Part shown: one piece after another, positions 5,521 through 31,275 of the stretch
How positions within the stretch are numbered: the first letter of the stretch is position 1
How the letters are laid out: each line of letters begins with the position of its first letter
Assembly (NCBI GenBank): GCA_022072205.1
Contig: JAJVID010000137.1
Location: 12,331-76,330 of the forward strand
Source: Acidobacteriota bacterium
GTDB taxonomy: Bacteria; Acidobacteriota; Blastocatellia; RBC074
Length of the DNA stretch: 64,000 nucleotides
Direction of reading: 5' to 3'
The notes under the pieces: model-generated
What the model was told of the DNA's origin: nothing
The model's database searches: none
The model's input: only the letters and a program-made list of their open reading frames with translations
Translations under genes and position numbers: made by a program

Positions 5521-6441
5521 TTACGGACGATGCTTTTCCAACCAGATGGTCAGATCGCCCACAGACTTGAATTCGAGCAGCGCCTCGCTCAATTGATCAA
5601 GTTCCGGCAAGGAGAGAGCCGGCAGCGCCGCAAGCGCCTCGGCTGGAATTACGCCGAAGCGATGAGTGAGTTGCCGCTTGATAATCGCAAGCCGCCCTAG
5701 CTGCTCGCCAAGCTGCTCGCCTATCTGAATACCGCGCTGCTCGCCAAGCTGCTCGCCTATCTGAATACCGCGCTGCTCGCCAAGCTGCTCGCCTTCTTTC
5801 AAAATCTCACGATAGATAACCGATTGCATCATAATTTCCCTCCGAAAAAGGCGGCGCACCAGGTTTCTATCAAACCGCAGTCCCGCCAGAATTCCCGCCG
5901 CCGCTGTCAGATCGCTGCGTTGGCTCTCATCCGCTATTTTACTCACTTTCTCAGCCACTTCCATCAGCAGTCGCTCAGGCTGTTCGGCGCGGGCCAGGAC
6001 GGCCAACGGCCATAGCCCTTCGTGCGCCAGCAGCGGCTCCGGGTCTTGCTCCCACATCCTGATCACGCGATAGCGATGCCGGGTGTCGCCGACGTGAAAC
6101 TCCTCGGGGATATGCGCTCCGGTTTCAGCCAAGACGATGACTGCCTGGCGGACAAGCTTGCGCTCGCGCCGATACACGCGCACGAAATAATCGAGCATCC
6201 GCAAATCAAGCGGCGGCTCGCTGTCGCTTGGGTCCGTCTCGAATTCGATGTGCAGAATCTCTTCTTCTGTCTCGATCAGATAGACTGAATCGGCGCGAAT
6301 CGGCTGCAATGAAAGCTCCGTCTTCAGCAACCGCACGCGGGCCACCGGCCTGCCGAGCAACCACGTGGCGAGAGCCGCCGGGTAATGCTCGGCCAGATAC
6401 TTCAATAAATTGTCATACTCGTGCGATTGCGCCATCCTCAT
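5521..6441 (-). CDS. Rpn/YhgA-like PD-(D/E)XK nuclease family protein with DUF4351-like C-terminus
   Basis: Motifs [23 protein letters not shown] ... [11 protein letters not shown] match the D..(hiEFQ)..R..Y pattern of this family. The start was chosen at the ATG overlapping the upstream TGA (ATGA); ATG 6435 is an alternative. Confidence 0.7.
5701..5793. repeat. Perfect 36-bp tandem repeat, about 2.6 copies, inside the Rpn-like CDS
   Basis: ctgctcgccaagctgctcgcctatctgaataccgcg occurs at 5701..5736 and 5737..5772, then 21 nt of a third copy. It encodes ([12 protein letters not shown])n on the minus strand. Confidence 0.9.
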
Positions 6442-9074
6442 CTCACGTAAACGAACTCGTTCAAATTCATCGTCGCCAGGCACAGATCAACCCAGGCCGC
6501 CGCAACCGCTTCATCAACACTCTTCGGCAAATCTTTCGGCTTCGACACAGCTTCGCCGCGCGCGGCTCGGTCACGAATGATCGCGGCCTGGCCTTTCAAA
6601 AAATCCTGCGTCAATCGCAATTCCTCTGGCTGCGGTTTGCGGGCAAGCGCGAGTTCGTAGAGCCGCACGATCATCGCGCGCTCATCGCCGCCCGCTTCTT
6701 TGAACAATCGTTCGGCGAGCGCCTGACTCTGCCGCAGCATGAATTCGCTGTTCATCAGCGTCAGCGATTGCAGCGCATGGACGCTGACCAATCGCGCTCC
6801 GCACGCGCTCATCAAATCAGGCGCGTCGAACGCCACCAGCATCGGCAGCCGCACGTTGCGCTTGTGAATCAGATAAAGGCTGCGGCGCGCGTGTTGGCGC
6901 GGGTCGGGGTGCGCGGGCCACAAATTGTCCGGCTCGTGTTCGGTGAAAATCATGTCGTAGACTTCGGGTTCCAATGGAACTTTGATCGAAGGCCCTCCCA
7001 ACTGCTCGTTCAACTGGCCGTTGACCGCGAGCACGGCGTCTCGGATCGCCTCGGCGTCCAGCCGCTGCCGGTTCATTCGCCACAACAATTTATTGTCGGG
7101 ATCAATCTTCGCTTTCGCATCGTCAACCGTTGACGATTGCTGATAAGCGTTCGACGAGACCATCAGCTCGTGCATCCGTTTCAGGCTCCAGCCTCGCTCG
7201 ACAAATTCCGCGGCGAGCCAATCGAGCAATTCTGGATGCGTGGGTTGCTGCCCGTTGCGCCCGAAATCGTTCGGCGTGGCGACGATGCCGCGCCCAAAGT
7301 GGTAATGCCACAGGCGGTTCACCATCACGCGCGCGGTCAGCGGGTTGTCCGGCTGCGCGAGCCAGCGAGCAAGCGCCAGCCTGCGCCCGGACGATTTGAA
7401 TTCGCCGCTCTGAACCGGCTCAATCTCCAACTTCAACGGCGCGTCCTTCGGCAGCGCCACGCTCAGAAATCGCGGGAGGACTTCATCGCCGAGGCGATGC
7501 GGATCGCCGCCTCTCAGAACATGCATCGGCGGAATCGGGCTGAGCGTGTCGGCTACGGCCAGAGCTTTCGGCAAAGGATCGGGGGCATACAATTCGATGT
7601 TGTGCATCTGCCGGCGCAGCGCGGCGCGCTTCTCGCGGTCTTCGCGCGAGAGCGATGCGACCAGTTCGTCCCACTTGATCTCCAGCATCCGTCGCGCGTC
7701 TTTAGCCAGGCGCTTCTCTTCATCGTTGCGCAGCCTGTCTTCTTTGGCCAGAGCGTTGGCGTATTGCGGCTCCAACTTCGCGCGCTTCGCCTCGGTCAAT
7801 TTCTCGTTGTACGGTTTTTCAATCGCCGCGATCTGATCGAGGAACGGCTTGAGTTTCGCTTTGTACGCTTTAGCCGCCGTCTCGTAAGCCTGCTCCTGCT
7901 CTTTTGTCGGACGTTTGTAGTCGTAATTGTCCGACGCGGCGAAAAACGCTTGCAGGCGATAGAAGTCGGCCTGTGGGATCGGATCGAACTTGTGATCGTG
8001 GCAACGCGCGCAGCCGACGGTCAAACCCATAATCCCGTTGCCCACGCCGAACATCACTTCGGTCAGCCACTCCTGCCGGTTGACGGCCAAATCCTGATTG
8101 CCCGCGACCACGTGTTGCGGTCCCACTCGCAAAAAGCCTGTCGCTACGCGCATCTCGAAGCTGTTCGGGTCTAGTTCGTCGCCCGCGATCTGTTCAACAA
8201 TGAACCGGTCGTAAGGCTTGTCGTCGTTGAGCGATTTGACGACGTAATCTCGATAGCGCCACGCCTGCTCGCGTTCGGCGTCAAGCTCGAAGCCGTTCGT
8301 CTCGCCGAAGCGCACGACATCCAGCCAATGTTGCGCCCAACGCTCGCCGTATCGCGGGCTGGCCAGCAACCGCTTCACGACTTTTTCGTAAGCCTGCGGC
8401 GATTTGTCGGCGATGAAAGAGTTGATCTCTTCAGGCGCCGGCGGCAGCCCGGTCAAATCGAACGTCACGCGGCGAATCAGCGCGCGTTTGTCGGCGCGCG
8501 GCGATGGCGCGAGACCTTTCTCTTCGAGCCTCGCCAGAACGAATGCGTCAATCGGCGTGCGAACCCACGATTGATTTTTGACCGCTGGAATTGGCGGACG
8601 CGCGGGTTTGCGGAACGCCCAGTAGCCGCGCTGCTCGTCGCTGATCGGCTTCAGAGGGGCCAGCGTCGCAGCCGCCTGCGTCAGCTTCAGATCGCTCGGC
8701 CAGACCGCGCCTTTGTCTATCCACTGCTTCAAAATTTCGATCTGATAATCTGAAAGCTCTTCGCCCATCGGCATTCGCGGTTTCTCTTCGCCGGCGATGA
8801 AGCGATAAAGCAGGCTCTCTTCGGCATCGCCGGGGTTGATGGCCGGGCCGCGCGATCCGCCTTTCAACAAACCTTCGCGCGTTCGCGCGTCCAGGCCCGA
8901 CTCTTTGTCCTTGCCGTGACACACGACGCAGCGCGTCTGCAAAATGGAAACGGCCTGCTGGGCAAGCTGTCCATGGCCTTGTTCAATCGAATCCGCCGCG
9001 CGAGAAGAGCGCACGGCCAAAACAGCCAGGCCGGCGAAAATGATGATGAGTTTGATCAGCCGATTTCGTCTCAT
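6438..9074 (-). CDS. PSD1 / planctomycete cytochrome c domain protein with DUF1549 and DUF1553 regions
   Basis: 878 aa. Signal peptide, CVVCHG heme-c motif near the N-terminus, and [13 protein letters not shown] typical of DUF1549/DUF1553 proteins. Confidence 0.85.
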
Positions 9075-19324: not shown

Positions 19325-19876
19325 ATGCGAACCTTCATCGCCATCGAAATTCCTTCCGAAATCAAATCCGCGCTCGCGGCGTTGCAGACCGAGTTGCGTC
19401 GCGCCGGCGCCGATGTCAGTTGGACGAAACCCGAAAGCATCCACCTGACGCTGAAATTCCTCGGCGAAGTTGATGAGGGGCGGATCAACGAGATTGAAAA
19501 AGCCTGTGTTGATACCGCGTCCGAATTTCAGCCGTTCACGCTCAAACTCAACGACACGGGCGTTTTTCCGAATTCGCGCCAGCCGCGCGTTCTCTGGGCG
19601 GGGTTGTCGGGCGAAGTCGAAAAGTCTGTCGAGATGCAAAAGCGGCTCGATGAAAAGCTCGCGCCGTTTGGGTTCGCGCGCGACGAGAAAGAATTCCGCC
19701 CGCACCTGACAATCGGGCGGGTGAAATCGAACCGGAAAACCCGCGAGTTGATCGCGCTTGCTGACTCATACCGGCTCCCTCCGCTGTCTTTCAACGTGAA
19801 CGAGTTTGTCTTGATGAAAAGCGAACTCCATCCGGCGGGCGCGCGATATACCTGCCTCGCAAAAGCTCATCTGTGA
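19325..19876 (+). CDS. thpR: RNA 2',3'-cyclic phosphodiesterase (2H phosphoesterase)
   Basis: 183 aa. Two H-x-T-x motifs (HLTLKF and HLTIGR). Confidence 0.85.
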   Translation: MRTFIAIEIPSEIKSALAALQTELRRAGADVSWTKPESIHLTLKFLGEVDEGRINEIEKACVDTASEFQPFTLKLNDTGVFPNSRQPRVLWAGLSGEVEKSVEMQKRLDEKLAPFGFARDEKEFRPHLTIGRVKSNRKTRELIALADSYRLPPLSFNVNEFVLMKSELHPAGARYTCLAKAHL

Positions 19877-19920
19877 AAACGAGCGGCGCCAATCACATTT
19901 TTAGCGTTACCATCGTTCCA

Positions 19921-22974
<3,054 letters not shown>

Positions 22975-23033
22975 TTCTATTACCTCCAGTGTCGCAAGCG
23001 AATGGCGCTTGATCCCAGCAAATCAGTTATAAA

Positions 23034-24842
23034 TCAGTGAACAGCGCAATGCAGGCACGGATCGAAGCTGCGGATCGTCCGCAGGATGTCAATGCCCATG
23101 AACTCTTCCGGCTTCGCGCTCTCTTCGAGCAGCGGAGTATTCATTACCGCGCTTTCGCAGGGGCCAGGAACACCGAACGGATCGCGCGGCGAAGCCGTCC
23201 AGGTTGACGCCGACAGAATTTGATAATCGGCGACGCTGCCGTATTCGATGGCGACGTGGTGAGTCATCGCGCCTCGAACTCCTTCCCAGAAACCGACGCC
23301 GGCGGCCTCGACGGGCGAGCGAAAAGGTTTGGACATCTTCTTCTCGCCTTTGTGCAGGTACTCGAACGCCTTCAGCATAAAAGTGAACGCCATCAGGCTG
23401 CTGTAGGCGATCTGATAAGCTCGCGCCCGATTTCTTTCCAGAGCGTTCGGTTTTTCGGGAATCCGCCAGCGCAACCGCTGCGCCGGCAATTCCAGCTTGG
23501 GCAATTCCATCTCCAACCCATTCCCCGTCGCGTGGATGAATTCGCTCTTCAGCTTGCCGGCCAGAGCCGAAACCCACATTCGCGCCAACGGCCCGGTCTC
23601 CATCGGCTCGCAATCCCAGCGCGGCGATGTTCCCCACGAATACCTTTCTTTCCAGTTCCGCTCCGACGGGTCGGGAATCGTCTTTTTATTCCAGGGATGA
23701 AACGGCGAGAGCGGCGAACCGTGCGGGTCGCTTTTCAGGCGGCTGCCCTCCCACTGTTTGTAAAACGAATGCGGGATGAACTCTTCGATCCCGATGTTGA
23801 GTTCGGTCAGCCGCGTCGTGCGCAATTCGCCGTTGACCACCGCGCCCGGCGTCGAAAGCCGCCGCTCGCCCCAACTGTTGCAATTCTGGTAAGAGCCATC
23901 GTAAGACTCAGCGTCGTCCCACATTCCCATGCTGAGCAGATTCGCAGGCAGTTCGCCGACTTTGCGGTAGAGGGGGTTGGCGTCGTAAAAGAACTCGACC
24001 AGATCGTCCCAGATCAGCGCGACTTTCTTCGAATATTCGACCAGCAAATGGATGCGGCCCAGCACGCGATTGAACGTTTCGCGCTCCGGCACAATTCCGA
24101 TTCCGCCTGGAAACATTGTGGACGGGTGCGGGTACTTGCCGAAGATAGCGGTGGCGATTTCGCGCGCCGCTCGCGTCACGTGCATCGCTTCCAGATAAAG
24201 ATCGCCGGCCATCGGGTTCATCGCAGCCATGATCTGAGCGATGGAGCCGAAGCCGTGCGCGCCAGCGTTCGGCGCCGACGCGACCAGCGCCTTCTCCCAC
24301 AGCGACGGAGCCGTCTTCCTGATAGTCACTTCGGAGTAATCAGGCCCGGCATGCAAAAACAGATGTTGCGGGTGATCGAAAAGGCTTTCGGCGCTCGCGC
24401 CCAGATTTCGCGCAATGATCGCCAGCGGAGGCGGCGCCACGTTGTAGGCCATCTCCAACGCCAGCGCGGAAGCGATCGTGTTCGCGCCGCTGCAAAGTCC
24501 GCAAACGCGGCTCGCAATCTGAACCGTGTCCGACGGCTCGCGGTCTTTCAGGATCAATTCATATCCGCGAAAGAGCGCGGCGCCCGTGCGCGCATCGAGC
24601 GCCTTGCGCTGCTCGAAATCAATCACGGTATGAAAGGCGAGCGCCCCGGAAACGCGAGTGACGGGGTCAATGTCGAAACTGCGAAGATATGAGCGTTCCG
24701 CCAATCCCGCGATTACGCGCTGCACGTCTGGTTCGGCCACTCCGACGCCGCCGCGCATGGCGAACGGGTACGACTGGCCATCGCCTCGCAGTGTGGCCTG
24801 CCCGCTCGCGTCAAATTCTATGGGGAGGTTCTTGAAATACAT
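23034..24842 (-). CDS. Divergent [NiFe]-hydrogenase large-subunit homologue, Cys-complete copy (HL-B)
   Basis: 602 aa. PVTRVSGA (in place of RIEGH), RVCGLCSGAN (CxxC kept, His replaced by Asn), GKYPHPSTMFPGGIG, and a C-terminus ending RSFDPCLHCAVH-stop with no extension. Confidence 0.8.
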   Translation of the reverse strand: MYFKNLPIEFDASGQATLRGDGQSYPFAMRGGVGVAEPDVQRVIAGLAERSYLRSFDIDPVTRVSGALAFHTVIDFEQRKALDARTGAALFRGYELILKDREPSDTVQIASRVCGLCSGANTIASALALEMAYNVAPPPLAIIARNLGASAESLFDHPQHLFLHAGPDYSEVTIRKTAPSLWEKALVASAPNAGAHGFGSIAQIMAAMNPMAGDLYLEAMHVTRAAREIATAIFGKYPHPSTMFPGGIGIVPERETFNRVLGRIHLLVEYSKKVALIWDDLVEFFYDANPLYRKVGELPANLLSMGMWDDAESYDGSYQNCNSWGERRLSTPGAVVNGELRTTRLTELNIGIEEFIPHSFYKQWEGSRLKSDPHGSPLSPFHPWNKKTIPDPSERNWKERYSWGTSPRWDCEPMETGPLARMWVSALAGKLKSEFIHATGNGLEMELPKLELPAQRLRWRIPEKPNALERNRARAYQIAYSSLMAFTFMLKAFEYLHKGEKKMSKPFRSPVEAAGVGFWEGVRGAMTHHVAIEYGSVADYQILSASTWTASPRDPFGVPGPCESAVMNTPLLEESAKPEEFMGIDILRTIRSFDPCLHCAVH

Positions 24843-24854
24843 TCACTGTCCTGG

Positions 24855-24914
24855 GAGCGCACGCTTCCAGCGCGCAACTCTGTGAGCGCACGCATCCAGC
24901 GTGCGCTCACAGAG
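24855..24914 (-). other. Intercistronic RNA structure: perfect 15-bp stem/7-nt loop hairpin plus a second copy of its 3' arm
   Basis: The hairpin has arms 24878..24892 and 24900..24914. On the mRNA, CUGGAUGCGUGCGCUCACAG is followed by the near-repeat CUGGAAGCGUGCGCUCCCAG, so the 5' arm GAGCGCACGC could pair with either copy. Confidence 0.7.
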
Positions 24915-24918
24915 ATCA

Positions 24919-26733
24919 TCAAGGATCGAAGCTGCGCGCCACGCGCAAAAGATCAACTCCGATGAAATCTTCCGCCCGCGCGCATTCTTCCAGCAGCGGA
25001 GTGTTCATCATCGCCGCTTCGTATATTCCCGGAAGACCGATGGCGTCGCGCGGCGATCCCATCCACTCGGACGGCGTGATGACCTGATAATTGCCGATCA
25101 CGCGATTTTTGATCGCCAGATGATGCGTCGTCATTCCGCGCCCCGATTCCCAGAATCCCACGCTGATCTTCCTGTCCGGATGTAAAAACCTGACGGACAT
25201 CGTCACCTCGCCCTGGCGAATGCAATCGAACGCTTTCAACAAATCGGCGTAGGCGACCATCACCGCGTAAGCCACCTGATAAGCCCTGGCCCGATTGCGT
25301 TCCAGCGCGTTCGGCCTTTCGGGGATTGACCACTGCAACGTAGTCGCGGGCCGTTGTCCCTTCGGCAAAAAAATTTCCAACCCTCTTTGCGACGACCTGC
25401 GCGATGACTTGATGAACTCGCAATTCTGCGCGCCGCCCGCTGCGTTGATCCACAAACGAGCCAGCGGCCCTGTCTCCATCGCTTCACGATCCCAGCGCGG
25501 CGCAGTGTTCCACGAATATCGTTCTTTCCAGTCGCGCGGCGTTGGAAAAGGAGCGGTTTCTTTGTTCCAGGGATGCCAGGGTGAAACCGGCCCGCTCAAC
25601 GGATCGGCTGGAACCTGTCCGCCTTCCCATTGCCCGTAATATGAATGATCAACAAATTCTTCGATGCCGATGTTGATGTCGGAGAGCCGGTCGGTTCGTA
25701 TCTCGCCGTTGATGATCACGCCCGGCGCCGACATCCGGCGCATCCCCCACTCGTTGCAGTTGGCGTAACTGGCGTCGTAACCTTCAGGATCGTCCCACAG
25801 CCCGACGCTGATCAGATTGCCCGGCAATTCACCCACGCGGCGATAACGAGGCTCGGCGTCGTAAAAGAAATCAACCAGATCGTCCCAGATGACCGCCAGC
25901 TTTTTGGAGTAATCCAGCAGCGCGTTGACGCGGCCCAGAACCTGATTGAATACCTCGCGGTTGGCTTCAATCCCGATCCCGCCAGGGACGATCGTCGCCG
26001 GATGCGGATGTTTGCCGAACATCAGCGTCGCCATCTCGCGGCCCAGCCGCGCCATCTGCAAAGCTTCAAGGTAAAGATGCCCGCTGATCGGGTTCATCCC
26101 GCGCATGATGTCGGCGACGGTTTCAAGCCCGTGCGCGTTGACGCCTGCGGCTGGCGTCTTCTGCGCCTTGCCCCAGAACGAGAGATTGGTGCGGCTGACT
26201 GCGCCTTCCGAATAATCAGGCCCCGCGAGCAGGAACAGATGATTGACGCATTCGCTGATCACTTCGCCGCAGGAACCCAGATTTCTTGCCAGCACAGCCA
26301 GCGGCGGCGGCGTCACGCCGGCGGCCATCTCCAGGGCCATCGCCGAAGCGATTGCGTGCGCGCCGCTCGAAGAACCGCAAACGCGGCTCGAAATGTGAAT
26401 CGCGTCCGACGGTTCATGGCCGTTCAGGGTCATCTCGCAGGCGCCCGATTGTCCGGCGAATTGTCCGCATTCGACGTGCGCGTCGAGCGCCCGCCGTTGA
26501 TCGAAATCAATCACTGTGCGCAGCGCGAAACGTCCACCGGTTCGCGTCACCGGCCCAATCTCGAAAGGCCTGACGTTTGGGTTGCTGGAAAGCTTTTCCA
26601 GCGTGCGCTCGCGGTTGAGCGCGCGTTGAATGCGGGGGTCGGGTGTGTAGTCGAAAGGGTCGCTGGCCTCTTCATCGCGCAAATGGGCGCGGCCATAAAC
26701 GTCGAATTTTATCGGAAGATTCTTGAAGACCAT
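24919..26733 (-). CDS. Degenerate [NiFe]-hydrogenase large-subunit homologue (HL-A); ends in TGA TGA exactly at the C-terminal Cys/Sec ligand position
   Basis: 604 aa, clearly paralogous to HL-B. L1 box reads [10 protein letters not shown] (second Cys lost, His kept). RIEGH position reads RTGGR. The C-terminus is ...RSFDP followed by TGA TGA. Confidence 0.75.
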
Positions 26734-26790
26734 TCAGGCCCCTACCGCTACCGCAGGCAGGCAAAAATCTGCGGCGGATTCAGTCGGCGA

Positions 26791-26827
26791 TATTTCATAT
26801 TTCACATGCGCTATTTCATATGAAATA
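26791..26827. promoter_or_regulatory. AT-rich repeat/palindrome in the gap between the small and large subunit genes
   Basis: TATTTCATA at 26791..26799, and a perfect 16-bp palindrome TATTTCATATGAAATA at 26812..26827, inside a 135-bp gap in otherwise GC-rich DNA. Confidence 0.4.
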
Positions 26828-26868
26828 TGATCACGCCTCGGAATTGTTGCCTGCGCGCTTATTGACGA

Positions 26869-27732
26869 TCAAAACGCCGGGTCCGGACGAGCCAGAGCCA
26901 GATAACTATCCGCGAAGTCGCGTTCGGTGCAGCCGATGCAGCTTCCGCCGACGCGGGCGCATCCGCCGAAGTTTCTCAACCACCCGGTCACGGGAACCGG
27001 GCACTTGACGGTCGGGCGGTTCGACAGATCGAACCCGACCGCAGGCGGATATTCAACGCGTGGTGGCAACGGATACGTTTCGTGGTTGTAAAGCCAGCGA
27101 GGACGGCGTTCCTCATCCAAATCAAGGGGCACCAATTGAGCCAGATGGAGGAAGACGTATATGAGCGTCTCAATAAAACCTTCGCCAGTTGGAGCGCATC
27201 CCGGCACATTGACTACAGGCAATCCGCTGGAACTGAAACCGCCGCGACTTCTGAAATCGCGGCCCAGATAATCTTCCAGCCCTTTCGCGCCTGTCGGATT
27301 GCCGTCCGCCGCGGGAATGCCTCCCCAGCTTGCGCAACTTCCAATCGCTATCACAGCCTCAGCCTGCGGAGCCAGCCGGTTCACCCAATCGGCGACAGTG
27401 ACCGGACGGCCATCAGCGGAGGTTCCCAGCCTGGAGAAACTCCCTTGTCCAGCCCGCGATTCATCAGCGATGGCGCCTTCGAGCACGAGCACAAAAGGCG
27501 AGAGCCTTCCATCCGCAGCCTGCTCCAGATTCGCCAGGAAAGCGTCGCCGCTCTCCGTCGCCAGATCAGGATGAACGAGGATGACGCGCGGCACGTCGGG
27601 CACATTGCCCAAAATCAGGTCTTCGATGCCGGGTTCGGACGAACCCAACATCGCCATCGTGCAGCCGTCACAGCCTGCGCCGCTCAGCCAGATCAGATAC
27701 ACCGCTTCGAGCGAGGACACTTCGCTCTGCAT
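26869..27732 (-). CDS. [NiFe]-hydrogenase small-subunit homologue, no Tat leader, 8 Cys only
   Basis: 287 aa. [23 protein letters not shown] and VPGCAP give the proximal-cluster pattern. A C-terminal C-x13-C-x6-C-x2-C (…[11 protein letters not shown]) is present. There is no RRxF leader and no H-x2-C / C-x5-C distal-cluster pattern. aagaggag RBS. Confidence 0.8.
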
Positions 27733-27873
27733 GCAACTCTCCTCTTAACTAAACTGCTCACCCAAATTTGAATGATCTGCAACAGCGATCAGCTAACGAA
27801 ATCGAAATTGATCCTAAATTGATCTGTGGCTATAAAATCCCGCTACAAAGGTGGGCGGATTATAAACGGATGA

Positions 27874-27891
27874 TTTGTTGCGCGCAACAAA
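27874..27891. promoter_or_regulatory. Perfect 18-bp palindrome TTTGTTGCGCGCAACAAA upstream of the hydrogenase-like operon
   Basis: Located 142 bp upstream of the small-subunit ATG in a 340-bp non-coding region. Candidate operator for a dimeric regulator. Confidence 0.4.
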
Positions 27892-27993
27892 CGCGAGCGA
27901 TCGCTCCGAGGATTTTGTCCTCCCGCTTAGGGCAATTAAGTTGAACGCCACCTTCTGCGGCTCTGCGGCATAGATACCGCCCCAAAGTTTCGT

Positions 27994-28010
27994 GGTTTGA
28001 TTTAGGCAGG
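27994..28010. repeat. Fragment related to the arm of the 40004..40238 element
   Basis: ggtttgatttaggcagg matches ggtttgattttaggcagg (40037..40054) apart from one T fewer in the T-run. It is flanked by an imperfect inverted repeat ctcccgctta / taagcggaga. Confidence 0.45.
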
Positions 28011-28073
28011 ACTTGGAGAGTTAAGCGGAGAAGAAAGCTGTCGCTTCTACCGTTTCATCGTTACGCTCGCGGG

Positions 28074-28988
28074 CTAAGTCCTCACTTTGATCCCTAAAAT
28101 CTTCGCGAACGTCTCGCCGTAAATTTTTCGGCGACTCGCTTCCGGCACATCGCAGGCATCGAGCATCGCTTCATAACGCGCAAGGCATGAGTCCAGATTC
28201 TCCGGTTCTTCGTCTGTGCCGAAGACGAGTTTCTCGAAGGCGTAGACCGCGTCCGGCGAACTGTGCGCCGTCGGGCCTTCCCACCAGAGATACTCTTTGA
28301 AGATTGCCGGATTCTTCCGCTTCTTGATGAGCGACGAACCGGTCAGGTCGAAATAAATGTTCTTCTCCCAGCGCGCGACCTCGGCGGCTTCGTCATACCA
28401 GGGATTGCCCAGGTGCGCTCCCTGAATCACGAGCTTCGGAAATGATCGCGCGATGGTGTGCAGAAAGGAAGGACGCATTCGCGCCATCGAAGACGGCTCC
28501 GGCTCGTCGCTCTCTCCTGAGACGATGCCGGTGTGAAAGAGCGCGACGAGTTTGAGCGCTTGCAGCTTTTCGTAGATCGGGAAATAACCGAAATCATCCC
28601 AATTGTATTTCGGCGTGTGCATCTTGACGCCTTTGAATCCGGCGTCGGCGAACTTTTGAATCTCGCTGATTACTTCGGGATTGTCTACGCTGACGTGGCC
28701 GTATGGGATGACGACGTCAGGGCGCTGCGCGGCGGCCTTTTTCACAACCTCGAATCCTGAGATCGGAGTCAGCACACAGGCCATCGCATTGCGCGAACTG
28801 TAAACTTTTACCAGCCGCTCGATATAATCCGGCGCCGCGCTGTAATGCTGATGAGTGTCAATAATGAAGCGTCGAGCCGGTGGTTTCGACTGCGGAGTTT
28901 GCGCGAAGGCGCGTGTCAATGCGCATCCCGTGGCTCCCGCCAATGCGCCCCTGATGAAATCACGGCGTGAATGAATCGTGTGCGCCAT
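28074..28988 (-). CDS. Amidohydrolase-2-type TIM-barrel metal hydrolase (Tat-exported)
   Basis: ORF trimmed to ATG 28988, giving the twin-arginine leader [29 protein letters not shown] metal motif; HTGI and late GTDE. Confidence 0.7.
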
Positions 28989-29025
28989 AAAATTTGTCTC
29001 CTGGTCACGCCCTTCGGCTTTCGAT

Positions 29026-31275
29026 CTAATTCTCCAACCTCGCCGCCGCCAATGCGCTCGCGGGCACGTTGTGCCTCTTCGCATACTCCCGAATGACAGC
29101 GGCCAGATTCTCCATCCACTTTTCGAGTCCGACACTTTCTTCCGGCGCGATCATGTAGCTCAGATCCGGACGGCGGTCAGCCCAGTGATCCTTCGTGTCA
29201 TCCAACACGTGATAAAACTTCCGCCCGTTGACTTCCCTGCCTTTTGCAAAACGGCTTTTCTCCCAGACGGTCTTCAGTGATCGGAACGTCTCGATTCGTT
29301 CTTTGACGACGCCTCGCGCTCGATCGTAAGCGCCGACCAGATGTCCGATGGCTTCCTGGTGGCGGTTTTTCGCGGATTCCATCCGCGCGGTATTCAACTC
29401 ATCCTCGATCTTTTTCATTCCGAGGATCAGGCGATTGTGATGACCCGTCAGTTCGGCGAGCGAAAGCAATACTTCCAGGTTGTAGCGGTTGCGATCCGCC
29501 TTCAAAAAATTCTGGTGAATCCGGTGCAGGAGCAGATCGTTCTCAAGCGCCATTCGGCCGGCTTCTTCAACGCGCGCCGCATAACGTCCGACATAGACGG
29601 GAACGAAATCCAGGCCAGGCATGGACGGCAGAGCGGGAGCGGGCAGCGTCTCGTCGAACCGAACGACGCCGATCCCCTTGCCGTACGAGTTGCCATAACC
29701 CGGCCCGCGCACTTTCGAGACGACGCGATCCCACGACTTTTCAAAGAAGCGGGCCTGCGTTTGCAGCCCGCGATAAACTTCCGTCATCTCCGCCACGTTC
29801 GGGCCGTAGTAAATCTTCATAAACTCGGCCACAGTTTGTTCGACGGGCGGCGTACCCGGTGTCCAGCCGTATTCGGCGACGGTCGCCCACCCCAGCCAGA
29901 ACGTTTCGTTGTGTAAGCCCGAATCGCCCCAGGCCGCGCCGAACGTCCCGATGGGCTTGCCCTTCCAGGCTTTGCTGCCGAACGAAATGGCGTCGGCGGC
30001 AGAGCGCAAACGCCCGACGGACGGCCCGGAATCGCCCCCCGTATTCAAACTGCTGGGCAGATGATTCGGAAACAGATATTCTGCGCCTTGCATTGAGACG
30101 TAGGCCAGTTGCCGCATCCCCAATTCGTTTTCGGTTTTCAGATATTCCTCGTCGCCGATGATGCCATCAATCACGTCGGGCGGAATCATTTTCACGTGTT
30201 CGGGCAGCAGTGGATATTCGGCCCACACCAGAATCCGCCGTCCCCGACTCGCGGCAAAATCGCGCGCGCGCCGCACGAATTCCACCCATTTCAAGCTGCG
30301 ATTTTGTTCGTTGTAGGGTTGGCTGCATTTGCCGCAGATGCCCGCGTAATATACCTCATCGGTTGAGACATACAGGTAATCCACGCCCTTCGTCGCTTTG
30401 ATAACATCGTCATACATCTGAAAAATCAGCTTGTAACTCTCTTCATCGCACATGCACATCTGATAATTGTTGCCGTCAGAGCGTAGATGCGCGAATTGCG
30501 GATGCTTGAGCACATAGGCGGTATGCGCGGGCGCTTGAATATTGGGCACAACCTGAATAAACCGCTCCAGACCGTAATTGACTATCTCCTGTAACTCGGC
30601 GGTGGTGAATGCGCCCGGAGCGCCGATGACGGGATTAGTCGGATACTCGAACTTGTCTTCGAGTTCAAACGCGATCATGTTTATTTTGAAGCGCGCCGAC
30701 CAATCCAGATACCGCTTGAGCGTTTCAATGCGATCCTGATGATGCTTCGTGTCCCAATGCAAAAAGCGCAGTTGCAACCTGGGCCGGTCTTCGATTGAAG
30801 CGATGGGCAAAAGCAGCTTGCCGCGCGGGCCTGCCTTGAGCAGTTGCAGCAGCGTCTGCACGCCATAAAACAGGCCCTGCTCGGTGTTGCCGGTGATCTC
30901 GATTGAACCTGGCGCGATTTTCAATCGGTAGCCCTGCTTGTCAAGCTCCGGGTCGTCGCCGGCCTGGATCGCGCCTTCCGCCACCGAAAGCCGGATCACA
31001 TTTTTCGCCTGCCCTGCGGCAGGCCGTATTTCGATCAGGTGAAACTCCCGCAGATCGCTGAGCAGCGAACGAACCACAATGTGGTCTTTGGCCAGTTTCC
31101 CCGCATCGTAAACCCACGAGTCGTCAAATCCGATCTCGCCGCTTTGCAGTTCGACTTTCTGCGGTGTGGGGATCACCGAGTAACCGCGCAGAAACAATTC
31201 GGTCGGCGACTGGGCAAGGGCAGGCGCAATAGTGAACAGGAACAAACTGAACAGACAGGCGGCGCGAGTTTTCAT
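29026..31275 (-). CDS. GH20-like glycoside hydrolase (beta-N-acetylhexosaminidase-like)
   Basis: 749 aa. Signal peptide. N-terminal GH20b-like pattern (IPTPQKV...GYRL...[12 protein letters not shown]), then a TIM-barrel region with YVSTDEVYY at the position of the GH20 GGDE catalytic pair. Confidence 0.55.

Follow-up and report, generated by a model that had tools for sequence, protein, structure and literature searches.

A hydrogenase-derived gene unit of Acidobacteriota in which a large subunit without a NiFe site accompanies a Cys-intact paralogue and a HoxJ-like histidine kinase

We analyzed a 64-kb stretch of DNA from a soil Acidobacteriota bacterium of the Blastocatellia (contig JAJVID010000137.1, positions 12,331 to 76,330; hereafter the window, meaning the whole 64,000 nucleotides) and found that it contains a unit of four minus-strand genes (27732-19921) encoding, in this order, a hydrogenase small subunit, two large-subunit paralogues that we call HL-A and HL-B, and a hybrid sensor histidine kinase (Table 1). 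Alignments and a structural model indicate that HL-A is an old, folded and selectively maintained large subunit without a nickel-iron (NiFe) site, and HL-B retains the four cysteines of such a site. We propose that the four genes probably specify one cytoplasmic two-component sensor derived from a group 1h/1l-type hydrogenase, in which HL-B would sense H2 and HL-A would be an obligate non-catalytic subunit. The assignment to signalling is made because the large subunits adjoin a small subunit with two iron-sulphur (FeS) clusters and a kinase resembling HoxJ, a context that was absent from a preliminary description of the two paralogues.

Both paralogues match the large-subunit family PF00374 in Pfam (1e-55 for HL-A and 3e-70 for HL-B) and are 54% identical over their full length. 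The similarity asserted in the preliminary description is real, and the peptide pairs that it quoted, whose second members are PPPLAIIARNLG and GKYPHPSTMFPGGIGIV, are present in the translations. In the N-terminal NiFe motif (L1), HL-A reads S116-R-V-C119-G-S-S122-S-G-A-H126, which retains the first Cys and the His but has Ser in place of the second Cys. The protein ends at F602-D-P604, followed by two TGA codons, and the CxxCxxH part of the C-terminal motif (L2) is absent. HL-B reads R112-V-C114-G-L-C117-S-G-A-N121 in L1 and D594-P-C596-L-H-C599-A-V-H602, directly followed by a stop codon, in L2; both Cys pairs are present, and the L1 His is replaced by Asn. Translation thus bears out the earlier readings of both proteins, and the motif positions had been assigned correctly, as shown when the proteins were aligned with 5AA5, a solved group 1h large subunit, and in an alignment of 87 sequences. 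HL-B remains, as had been proposed, the only candidate metal binder in the window.

The changes in HL-A are not peculiar to this genome. A homologue search with HL-A recovered about 80 cluster representatives (58-99% identity), chiefly from Blastocatellia and other Acidobacteriota, and none of the HL-A orthologues has intact motifs. When our two homologue searches are taken together, all 84 truncated representatives, most of them HL-A-like, stop at the end position of HL-A; nearly all end in ...SFDP, and four variants have F-G-P or F-A-P. Because the pattern recurs in 84 independent cluster representatives, the truncation and the loss of cysteines are not the product of chance or sequencing error. 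The second L1 Cys is absent from all aligned HL-A-like copies. The position of the first is occupied by C, S, N, R, Q, K, E or D, with C119 confined to the subclade of the window, and because this position is so variable among orthologues, C119 is a relic. No alternative conserved set of metal ligands was found in the alignment of HL-A orthologues.

Despite the loss of the site, HL-A has the marks of a protein under constraint. Pairwise Nei-Gojobori estimates of the ratio of nonsynonymous to synonymous substitution rates (dN/dS) are 0.01-0.16 for HL-A, a range comparable to the values for HL-B (0.11, window versus locus L001) and for the small subunit (0.02-0.12); the Cys-less second copies of related genomes, described below, give 0.01-0.10. 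Among the 150 alignment columns that are invariant in Cys-intact relatives, HL-A keeps 105 (at a level of at least 90%), and the lost columns are concentrated in L1, L2 and the PSTWMASPRD segment, which is altered in HL-A. A K-x-P-H-P motif is invariant in all copies; by alignment offsets, its His corresponds approximately to residue 229 of Escherichia coli Hyd-1, which we take to face the proximal cluster. An AlphaFold model of HL-A has a predicted local distance difference test score (pLDDT) of 87 and a predicted template-modelling score (pTM) of 0.90, and it superposes on the 5AA5 large subunit (5aa5_C) with a root-mean-square deviation of 1.7 Å and template-modelling (TM) scores of 0.87/0.94. 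The former active-site pocket contains HL-A-specific conserved residues, for example the L1 Ser run and a Glu. These results agree with the earlier suggestion that HL-A is folded and constrained although it lacks a NiFe site.

The same data dispose of two ways of explaining HL-A away. A strain-specific pseudogene is ruled out by the orthologues with the same truncation and by the dN/dS range, and we see next to no chance that HL-A is either a decaying pseudogene or a selenoprotein in which read-through of TGA restores DPUxxCxxH. The selenoprotein idea draws on a TGA that falls exactly at the first L2 Cys position and on a stable hairpin after it, superficially like a bacterial selenocysteine insertion sequence (SECIS). 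However, the two TGA codons are consecutive, the frame downstream reads stop-stop-SL-stop-AHAG... and has no CxxCxxH, orthologous genes end in TAA, TGA or TAG, and some orthologous spacers are only 2-7 nt long, so that selenocysteine read-through is excluded. As for decay, the open reading frame (ORF) is intact in the recovered representatives apart from a sole disrupted case. In that case, locus L025 (6131-7928), HL-A is split into two ORFs (6131-7063 and 7089-7928), reflecting either a frameshift or stop in this metagenome-assembled genome (MAG) or an assembly error.

Comparison of 26 acidobacterial loci revealed the order small subunit, HL-A, second large subunit and kinase wherever the contig allows, with HL-A in every locus, also where the second large subunit is Cys-less or absent. 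The second large subunit has four Cys in the window, in L001, L002, L017, L057 and L058, and in about 25 protein clusters. In most loci (L006-L016, L018-L025 and L032) it instead reads SRVSGQGSGAN in L1 and ends in ...SFDP, and L003 and L004 have a small subunit, HL-A and a kinase but no second large subunit. The constant members of the unit are HL-A, the small subunit and the kinase; the NiFe-capable copy is variable, and the window represents a minority state. The preliminary description had supposed that the two copies complement each other, a view that fails in these genomes, since both copies are Cys-less and truncated in most of them and two loci have HL-A only.

This distribution also bears on a possible role for HL-A as a maturation scaffold like HoxV/HupK, with its lone L1 Cys carrying Fe(CN)2CO to HL-B. 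HoxV and HupK are large-subunit relatives that have lost most of the NiFe cysteines, keep one conserved Cys and are encoded within hydrogenase clusters (compare the pHG1 annotation), and HL-A of the window keeps exactly one of the four Cys, C119. However, the HL-A partners of Cys-intact HL-B proteins read SRFSG, SRASG, SRANG or SRLQG at this site (P0012/P0118, P0013/P0130, P0019/P0135 and L017), and HL-A persists where HL-B is Cys-less or absent. HoxV, at about 380 aa, relies on a Cys that is not conserved among HL-A orthologues and is encoded among maturation genes, whereas HL-A is full length, is 54% identical to HL-B, has only a weak local match to HoxV (67 residues) and has no maturation genes nearby. 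We therefore give the scaffold role very little credence.

The Cys-intact copy has features of its own that point toward sensing. HL-B is 100% identical to protein P0121 of an "Acidobacteria bacterium" MAG. In the 25 Cys-intact HL-B orthologue clusters (62-100% identity), the four Cys are invariant, every protein ends at the L2 His without a C-terminal extension (25/25), and the L1 His position holds Asn in 14 and His in 11. HoxC of Cupriavidus necator (from pHG1) has RVCGICSVSQ in L1 and the C-terminus ...SFDPCMVCTVH-stop. A Gln instead of the otherwise conserved L1 His is characteristic of regulatory (sensor) hydrogenases (PMC5665086), and the cleaved C-terminal peptide is missing only from sensory and Ech large subunits (PMC6769069). 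HL-B thus appears to combine two sequence hallmarks of H2 sensors, the lack of a C-terminal extension, so that it ends at the L2 His as HoxC does (PMC6769069), and an amide side chain where the L1 His would be, although the residue is Asn in HL-B and Gln in HoxC (PMC5665086). Consequently, the claim of complementary decay fails for HL-B as well. With Asn and His both common at this position, four invariant Cys and a Gln in HoxC, the change of His to Asn is not the decay of a metal ligand. The sequence places HL-B in the group 1h/1l lineage and not in group 2b, and in the source organism NiFe binding and H2 sensing are probably still possible.

All outgroup sequences and, apart from P0096, all Cys-intact HL-B proteins carry the active-site Arg of the RG motif; the Cys-less copies vary at this position. 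P0096 (L017:10092-11903) keeps the four NiFe Cys and the L1 His and has Gln in place of this Arg (GFSESGQGIL). This protein may represent an intermediate stage, with catalysis compromised ahead of ligand loss.

The small subunit contains exactly eight Cys, assigned to a proximal cluster (C21, C24, C133 and C179) and a medial cluster (C244, C258, C265 and C268). Relative to its best solved relative, HofK of 5AA5 (9e-68), the distal cluster has lost its ligands (HxxC, C and C) by deletion, whereas all four proximal and all four medial ligands are kept; the second proximal ligand is Cys here and Asp in HofK. No complete acidobacterial small subunit departs from these eight Cys, not even where both large subunits are Cys-less. 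There is no twin-arginine (Tat) signal in the small subunit, and by inspection none of the four proteins of the unit has a signal peptide or an obvious membrane segment. Judged by its sequence, a hydrogenase without a surface-exposed distal cluster and an acceptor partner would be poorly suited to supplying a respiratory chain.

These features weigh on whether the unit works as an uptake hydrogenase of the atmospheric-H2 type (group 1h/1l), catalytic and energy-yielding, with HL-A as an extra structural subunit and the kinase as a transcriptional regulator. Such an enzyme would fit the closest solved structure, group 1h 5AA5, which is the best solved relative of HL-A, HL-B (2e-148) and the small subunit, as well as the complete ligand set of HL-B and the wording of public records ('nickel-dependent hydrogenase large subunit'). 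Nonetheless, we consider it distinctly unlikely. The distal cluster, which hands electrons over to an acceptor, is deleted, and the neighborhood of the unit has no genes for an electron acceptor or a membrane anchor. Genes for hyp proteins, endopeptidase, cytochrome b and Rieske protein are absent from the 64-kb window and from within 10 kb of the unit at L057 and L058. The large subunits lack the extension of 22-25 aa found in group 1h and outgroup large subunits, and most relatives with the same operon manage without the NiFe site.

The kinase is a 1017-aa hybrid with three PAS domains, a GAF domain, HisKA, HATPase and a receiver (Pfam), and it lies 3' of the large subunits in 24 acidobacterial loci. 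Its residues 1-190 (window 22405-22974, minus strand) have a mean column identity of 89% across loci, against just 55-85% identity for the accompanying large subunits, and the input module within this region has two invariant Cys, C99 and C113. Such constraint suggests a cofactor-binding or tight docking surface. In a profile comparison (hhalign), the input module, a helix plus PAS domain, matched the N-terminus of HoxJ from residue 8 to 164 (P 96%, E 2e-9, 156 columns), albeit from a shallow profile (Neff 1.2). As controls, the module gave no match to the kinase's own PAS2 and only P 9% to the PAS-GAF hybrid kinase of L001. The match to HoxJ and the negative controls together tie the kinase specifically to the hydrogenase-coupled HoxJ type. 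Most matches in a homologue search with the N-terminal 190 aa were fragments from within the clade, and none was an informative distant relative.

On the proposed reading as an H2 sensor, the small subunit, HL-A and HL-B would form a complex on the double-dimer model of group 1h and regulatory hydrogenases, with HL-B in the active half and HL-A in the inactive half, perhaps in the second large-subunit position. In the source organism, H2 would be split at the NiFe site of HL-B and the two FeS clusters would be reduced. In the absence of a distal cluster and an electron-acceptor partner, the resulting redox or conformational state would be read by the HoxJ-like input domain, altering autophosphorylation of the kinase and the phosphorelay. 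HL-A would act as a non-catalytic structural and docking subunit.

Several points weigh against this proposal. H2 sensing, the composition of the complex and the contact with the kinase are all inferred, as is everything past sequence, synteny and selection. HL-B would need Hyp maturation proteins, and hyp genes were sought in the window and the flanks of the other loci only. The match to HoxJ comes from a shallow profile, and a neighboring kinase would likewise be compatible with the ordinary regulation of a catalytic enzyme. The Cys-less copies in the second position give conflicting signals of kinship toward HL-B and toward HL-A. Finally, P0096 shows that NiFe ligands can outlast compromised activity, and the same could hold for HL-B of the window.

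The wider family raises the question of what is sensed where no NiFe site is left. Both large subunits are Cys-less in most relatives, and therefore the core there would have to sense something other than H2. The conserved core of these relatives (FeS small subunit, HL-A and kinase) would most simply sense the cellular redox state or O2 through its FeS clusters, and the NiFe site would be in the course of being abandoned across the family. We tentatively suggest, at somewhat less than even odds, that the family is a hydrogenase turning into a NiFe-free sensor, with a two-cluster small subunit, Cys-less HL-A and HoxJ-like kinase as its core and HL-B as an optional, disappearing member, and that most Blastocatellia use it to sense redox state, O2 or a pocket ligand rather than H2.

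A more radical version, which we regard as unlikely, holds that the whole module, including that of the source organism, has become a redox or O2 sensor that works through FeS clusters on a hydrogenase scaffold, and that the Cys of HL-B are a vestige that has not yet decayed. It would account for the many loci in which both large subunits are Cys-less, yet an eight-Cys small subunit and a near-invariant kinase input module are under strong purifying selection, for the two loci without HL-B, for P0096 with its Cys kept and its active-site Arg lost, and for the lack of hyp genes nearby. However, the four Cys and the active-site Arg are invariant in about 24 HL-B clusters, down to 74% identity, which argues for selection on the NiFe site within the HL-B subclade. 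The HL-B dN/dS of 0.11 between the window and L001 points the same way, and the change of His to Asn mirrors a sensor-specific substitution and not random decay. For the window itself we therefore prefer H2 sensing through HL-B.

How the Cys-less second copies arose can be told in more than one way. Neighbor-joining places them together with HL-A in all of 100 bootstrap replicates. However, four-point sums hardly differ once the N-terminal 200 columns are set aside, and each of the two Cys-less clades sits on a long branch. With HL-B, the Cys-less second copy shares GKLKNEF, the L1 Asn and the second gene position. It is possible that HL-B lost its site in a second event, with a Cys codon turning into a stop at the same position, that the 3' end of the second copy was taken from HL-A by gene conversion, or that HL-A was re-duplicated following the loss of HL-B. 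In a library of 1.84 billion representatives, Cys-less truncated large subunits amount to three 50%-identity clusters (P0073, P0190 and P0191) and form one compact lineage. P0190 (L055:87-2829) is divergent, with 48% identity to HL-A; on its short metagenome contig, a 278-aa small subunit precedes a Cys-less large subunit ending in ...RSFDV, and the NiFe-less form therefore reaches past the Blastocatellia clade that was sampled.

Among Cys-intact relatives, the nearest form an outgroup (57-65% identical) found in Acidimicrobiia, Chloroflexota and Proteobacteria. Its large subunits read SRACGVCGGVH ... DPCMPCTTH, keep the L1 His, have a C-terminal extension of 22-25 aa and lack an adjacent kinase; its small subunits have 365-411 aa and 11-14 Cys. 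The outgroup extensions at L026-L048 end in a conserved C-x-C (...TCACGxE or ...SCGCTLE), which is unusual for a peptide that is normally cleaved. One outgroup-type protein, in a Solirubrobacterales MAG (L049:403-2094), reads SRACGVGGGAH ... SFNPSMSCATH, with two of the four Cys lost and no C-terminal extension; from its sequence, the NiFe site seems to have decayed in part here, independently of the acidobacterial clade.

The unit resembles several known systems without coinciding with any of them. Like the group 2b regulatory hydrogenases HoxBC-HoxJ of C. necator and HupUV-HupT, it has the gene order small subunit, large subunit and kinase (pHG1), consists of cytoplasmic proteins without a Tat signal, and has a kinase whose N-terminal helix-plus-PAS module is similar to that of HoxJ. 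However, identity to the group 2b proteins is low (27% for HL-B against HoxC and 34% for the small subunit against HoxB), and both subunits are much closer to 5AA5. HoxB has three clusters, 347 aa and a C-terminal tail of about 50 residues, whereas the small subunit of the window has two clusters, 287 aa and no tail. The kinase, with its three PAS domains, GAF domain and receiver in a 1017-aa hybrid, differs from those of the HoxJ/HupT systems, and group 2b has no counterpart to the extra Cys-less paralogue; nor does the unit have adjacent hyp or target hydrogenase genes.

By sequence and fold, the group 1h (Hhy/AH, 5AA5) and 1l-like enzymes of soil-dwelling aerobes are nearest, with large subunits of about 600 aa. 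In some outgroup loci, the genes for the small and large subunits lie about 1.7 kb apart, as described for group 1l (bioRxiv 10.1101/2020.08.06.239558). Unlike the window unit, these enzymes have the 22-25 aa extension, the L1 His and three-cluster small subunits of 365-411 aa, and they lack an adjacent kinase; in the acidobacterial family, the distal cluster and the extension are gone, and one or both large subunits are without NiFe ligands.

The loss of the NiFe site has a precedent in NuoD/Nqo4 of complex I and in the Ehr/Mbx-type descendants of group 4, in which the fold and an FeS small-subunit partner are kept and the four NiFe Cys are lost. In HydDB, the hydrogenase homologues without H2 metabolism are limited to Nuo, Ehr, NARF and HmdII, with Nuo and Ehr as the [NiFe]-type ones (PMC5037454). 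The parallel with NuoD drawn in the preliminary description is apt as an analogy, in that the NiFe site was lost independently and the FeS small subunit kept. Nonetheless, the loss described here occurred in a group 1 lineage, in a unit that is soluble and kinase-linked and not a membrane-bound ion pump, with no evidence of a quinone pocket and with the Cys-less copy standing beside a Cys-intact paralogue in one operon. NuoD/Ehr-type homologues go together with antiporter-like membrane subunits, and no Nuo- or Mrp-like neighbors were found around the unit in the window. In the literature, we found no Cys-less group 1 large subunit, no kinase-linked group 1h/1l enzyme and no sensory hydrogenase from Acidobacteriota or Blastocatellia. 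Among curated NCBIfam models, every match was far under the cut-off, so there is no curated family for these proteins.

The 76-nt spacer between HL-A and HL-B contains a perfect hairpin of about 16 bp, then a second, shorter hairpin, and no U-tract. RNA folding of the spacer hairpin gave -48.9 kcal/mol with a z of -4.55. Strong hairpins occur in most orthologous spacers of 60-100 nt (L002, L006, L007, L008, L011, L016, L018, L019, L020 and L022), although their sequences are unrelated and often consist of short tandem repeats opposite their own reverse complement (e.g., repeats of GGAAACTGG, or GACAACTGACGACTG). In four loci, the spacer is merely 2-7 nt. A dispersed REP-like element was considered as the origin of the hairpin and rejected: the arm sequence occurs only at this site of the window, and there are six matches with at most two mismatches, versus 3.1 expected. 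The hairpin may tune the ratio of HL-A to HL-B or the stability of the mRNA. An Rfam scan of the whole window returned no family at threshold, and a scan of 19500-28300 for promoter and terminator consensus sequences found nothing exceeding the expectation from shuffled sequence.

Other genes of the window encode esterases, peptidases, glycoside hydrolases, a TonB-type receptor and similar proteins. Immediately 5' of the small subunit, L001 (3889-6234), L002 (4237-6585) and L058 (4550-6862) carry a second PAS-GAF hybrid histidine kinase of about 780 aa, with a HAD/NAD_binding_4 'male sterility'-type reductase past it; the same upstream position of the window has an amidohydrolase gene (28074-29135) and a GH20 gene. 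A gene for a LigT-type 2'-5' RNA ligase/phosphoesterase converges on the 3' end of the kinase gene or lies close to it, both in the window (19325-19876, plus strand) and in two distant loci (L057:10253-10810 and L058:15428-15985), and may be a syntenic neighbor without an obvious tie to the unit.

Table 1. Features of the hydrogenase-derived unit in the window, in order of transcription
Feature	Position	Strand	Description and basis
Small subunit gene	26869..27732	-	287 aa; Pfam Oxidored_q6
HL-A, large-subunit paralogue without NiFe site	24919..26733	-	604 aa, C-terminus ...SFDP; Pfam, alignments, dN/dS, model
HL-A L1 remnant, R117-VCGSSSGA-H126	26356..26385	-	Translation, alignment
HL-A C-terminus, F-D-P then TGA TGA	24916..24930	-	Stop where the first L2 Cys codon would be
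Spacer hairpin between HL-A and HL-B	24878..24914	-	RNA fold
HL-B, four NiFe Cys, no C-terminal extension	23034..24842	-	602 aa; translation, Pfam, alignments
HL-B L1 motif, R112-VC114GLC117SGA-N121	24480..24509	-	Asn at the His position; translation, alignment
HL-B L2 motif, D594-PC596LHC599AV-H602	23037..23063	-	Stop codon directly after; translation, HoxC end alike
Hybrid sensor histidine kinase	19921..22974	-	1017 aa, last gene of the unit; Pfam
Kinase N-terminal input module, aa 21-176 (helix + PAS1)	22447..22914	-	HoxJ-like; profile comparison, cross-locus conservation

Finally, our analysis has implications for how such genes are counted. Public annotation uses the names "nickel-dependent hydrogenase large subunit" and "Hydrogenase-1 large chain" for this family, and classifiers based on similarity would probably place its members with the group 1h/1l oxidizers of atmospheric H2. 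Most of them cannot bind NiFe, and surveys of trace-gas H2 oxidizers in Acidobacteriota that count such genes would thus be inflated; these genes should not be counted as ordinary hydrogen-oxidizing enzymes. The sensor traits of the unit (no extension, an amide at the L1 His position and a HoxJ-like input module) occur outside group 2b and offer an independent natural test of which features make a sensor.

In summary, the unit is a variant of two kinds that are already known, regulatory hydrogenases and NiFe-less hydrogenase descendants. The genomes show a series that runs from canonical HL-B through His replaced by Asn, Cys kept with the active-site Arg lost, and both copies Cys-less, to HL-A only, a rare stepwise record of the path from a complex metalloenzyme to a pseudoenzyme. 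To our knowledge, only the very old case of NuoD and complex I has so far given access to this question. If the family is indeed becoming a NiFe-free sensor, it would give the NuoD-type loss of the NiFe site its first counterpart that is soluble and serves signalling, and one that arose inside group 1.

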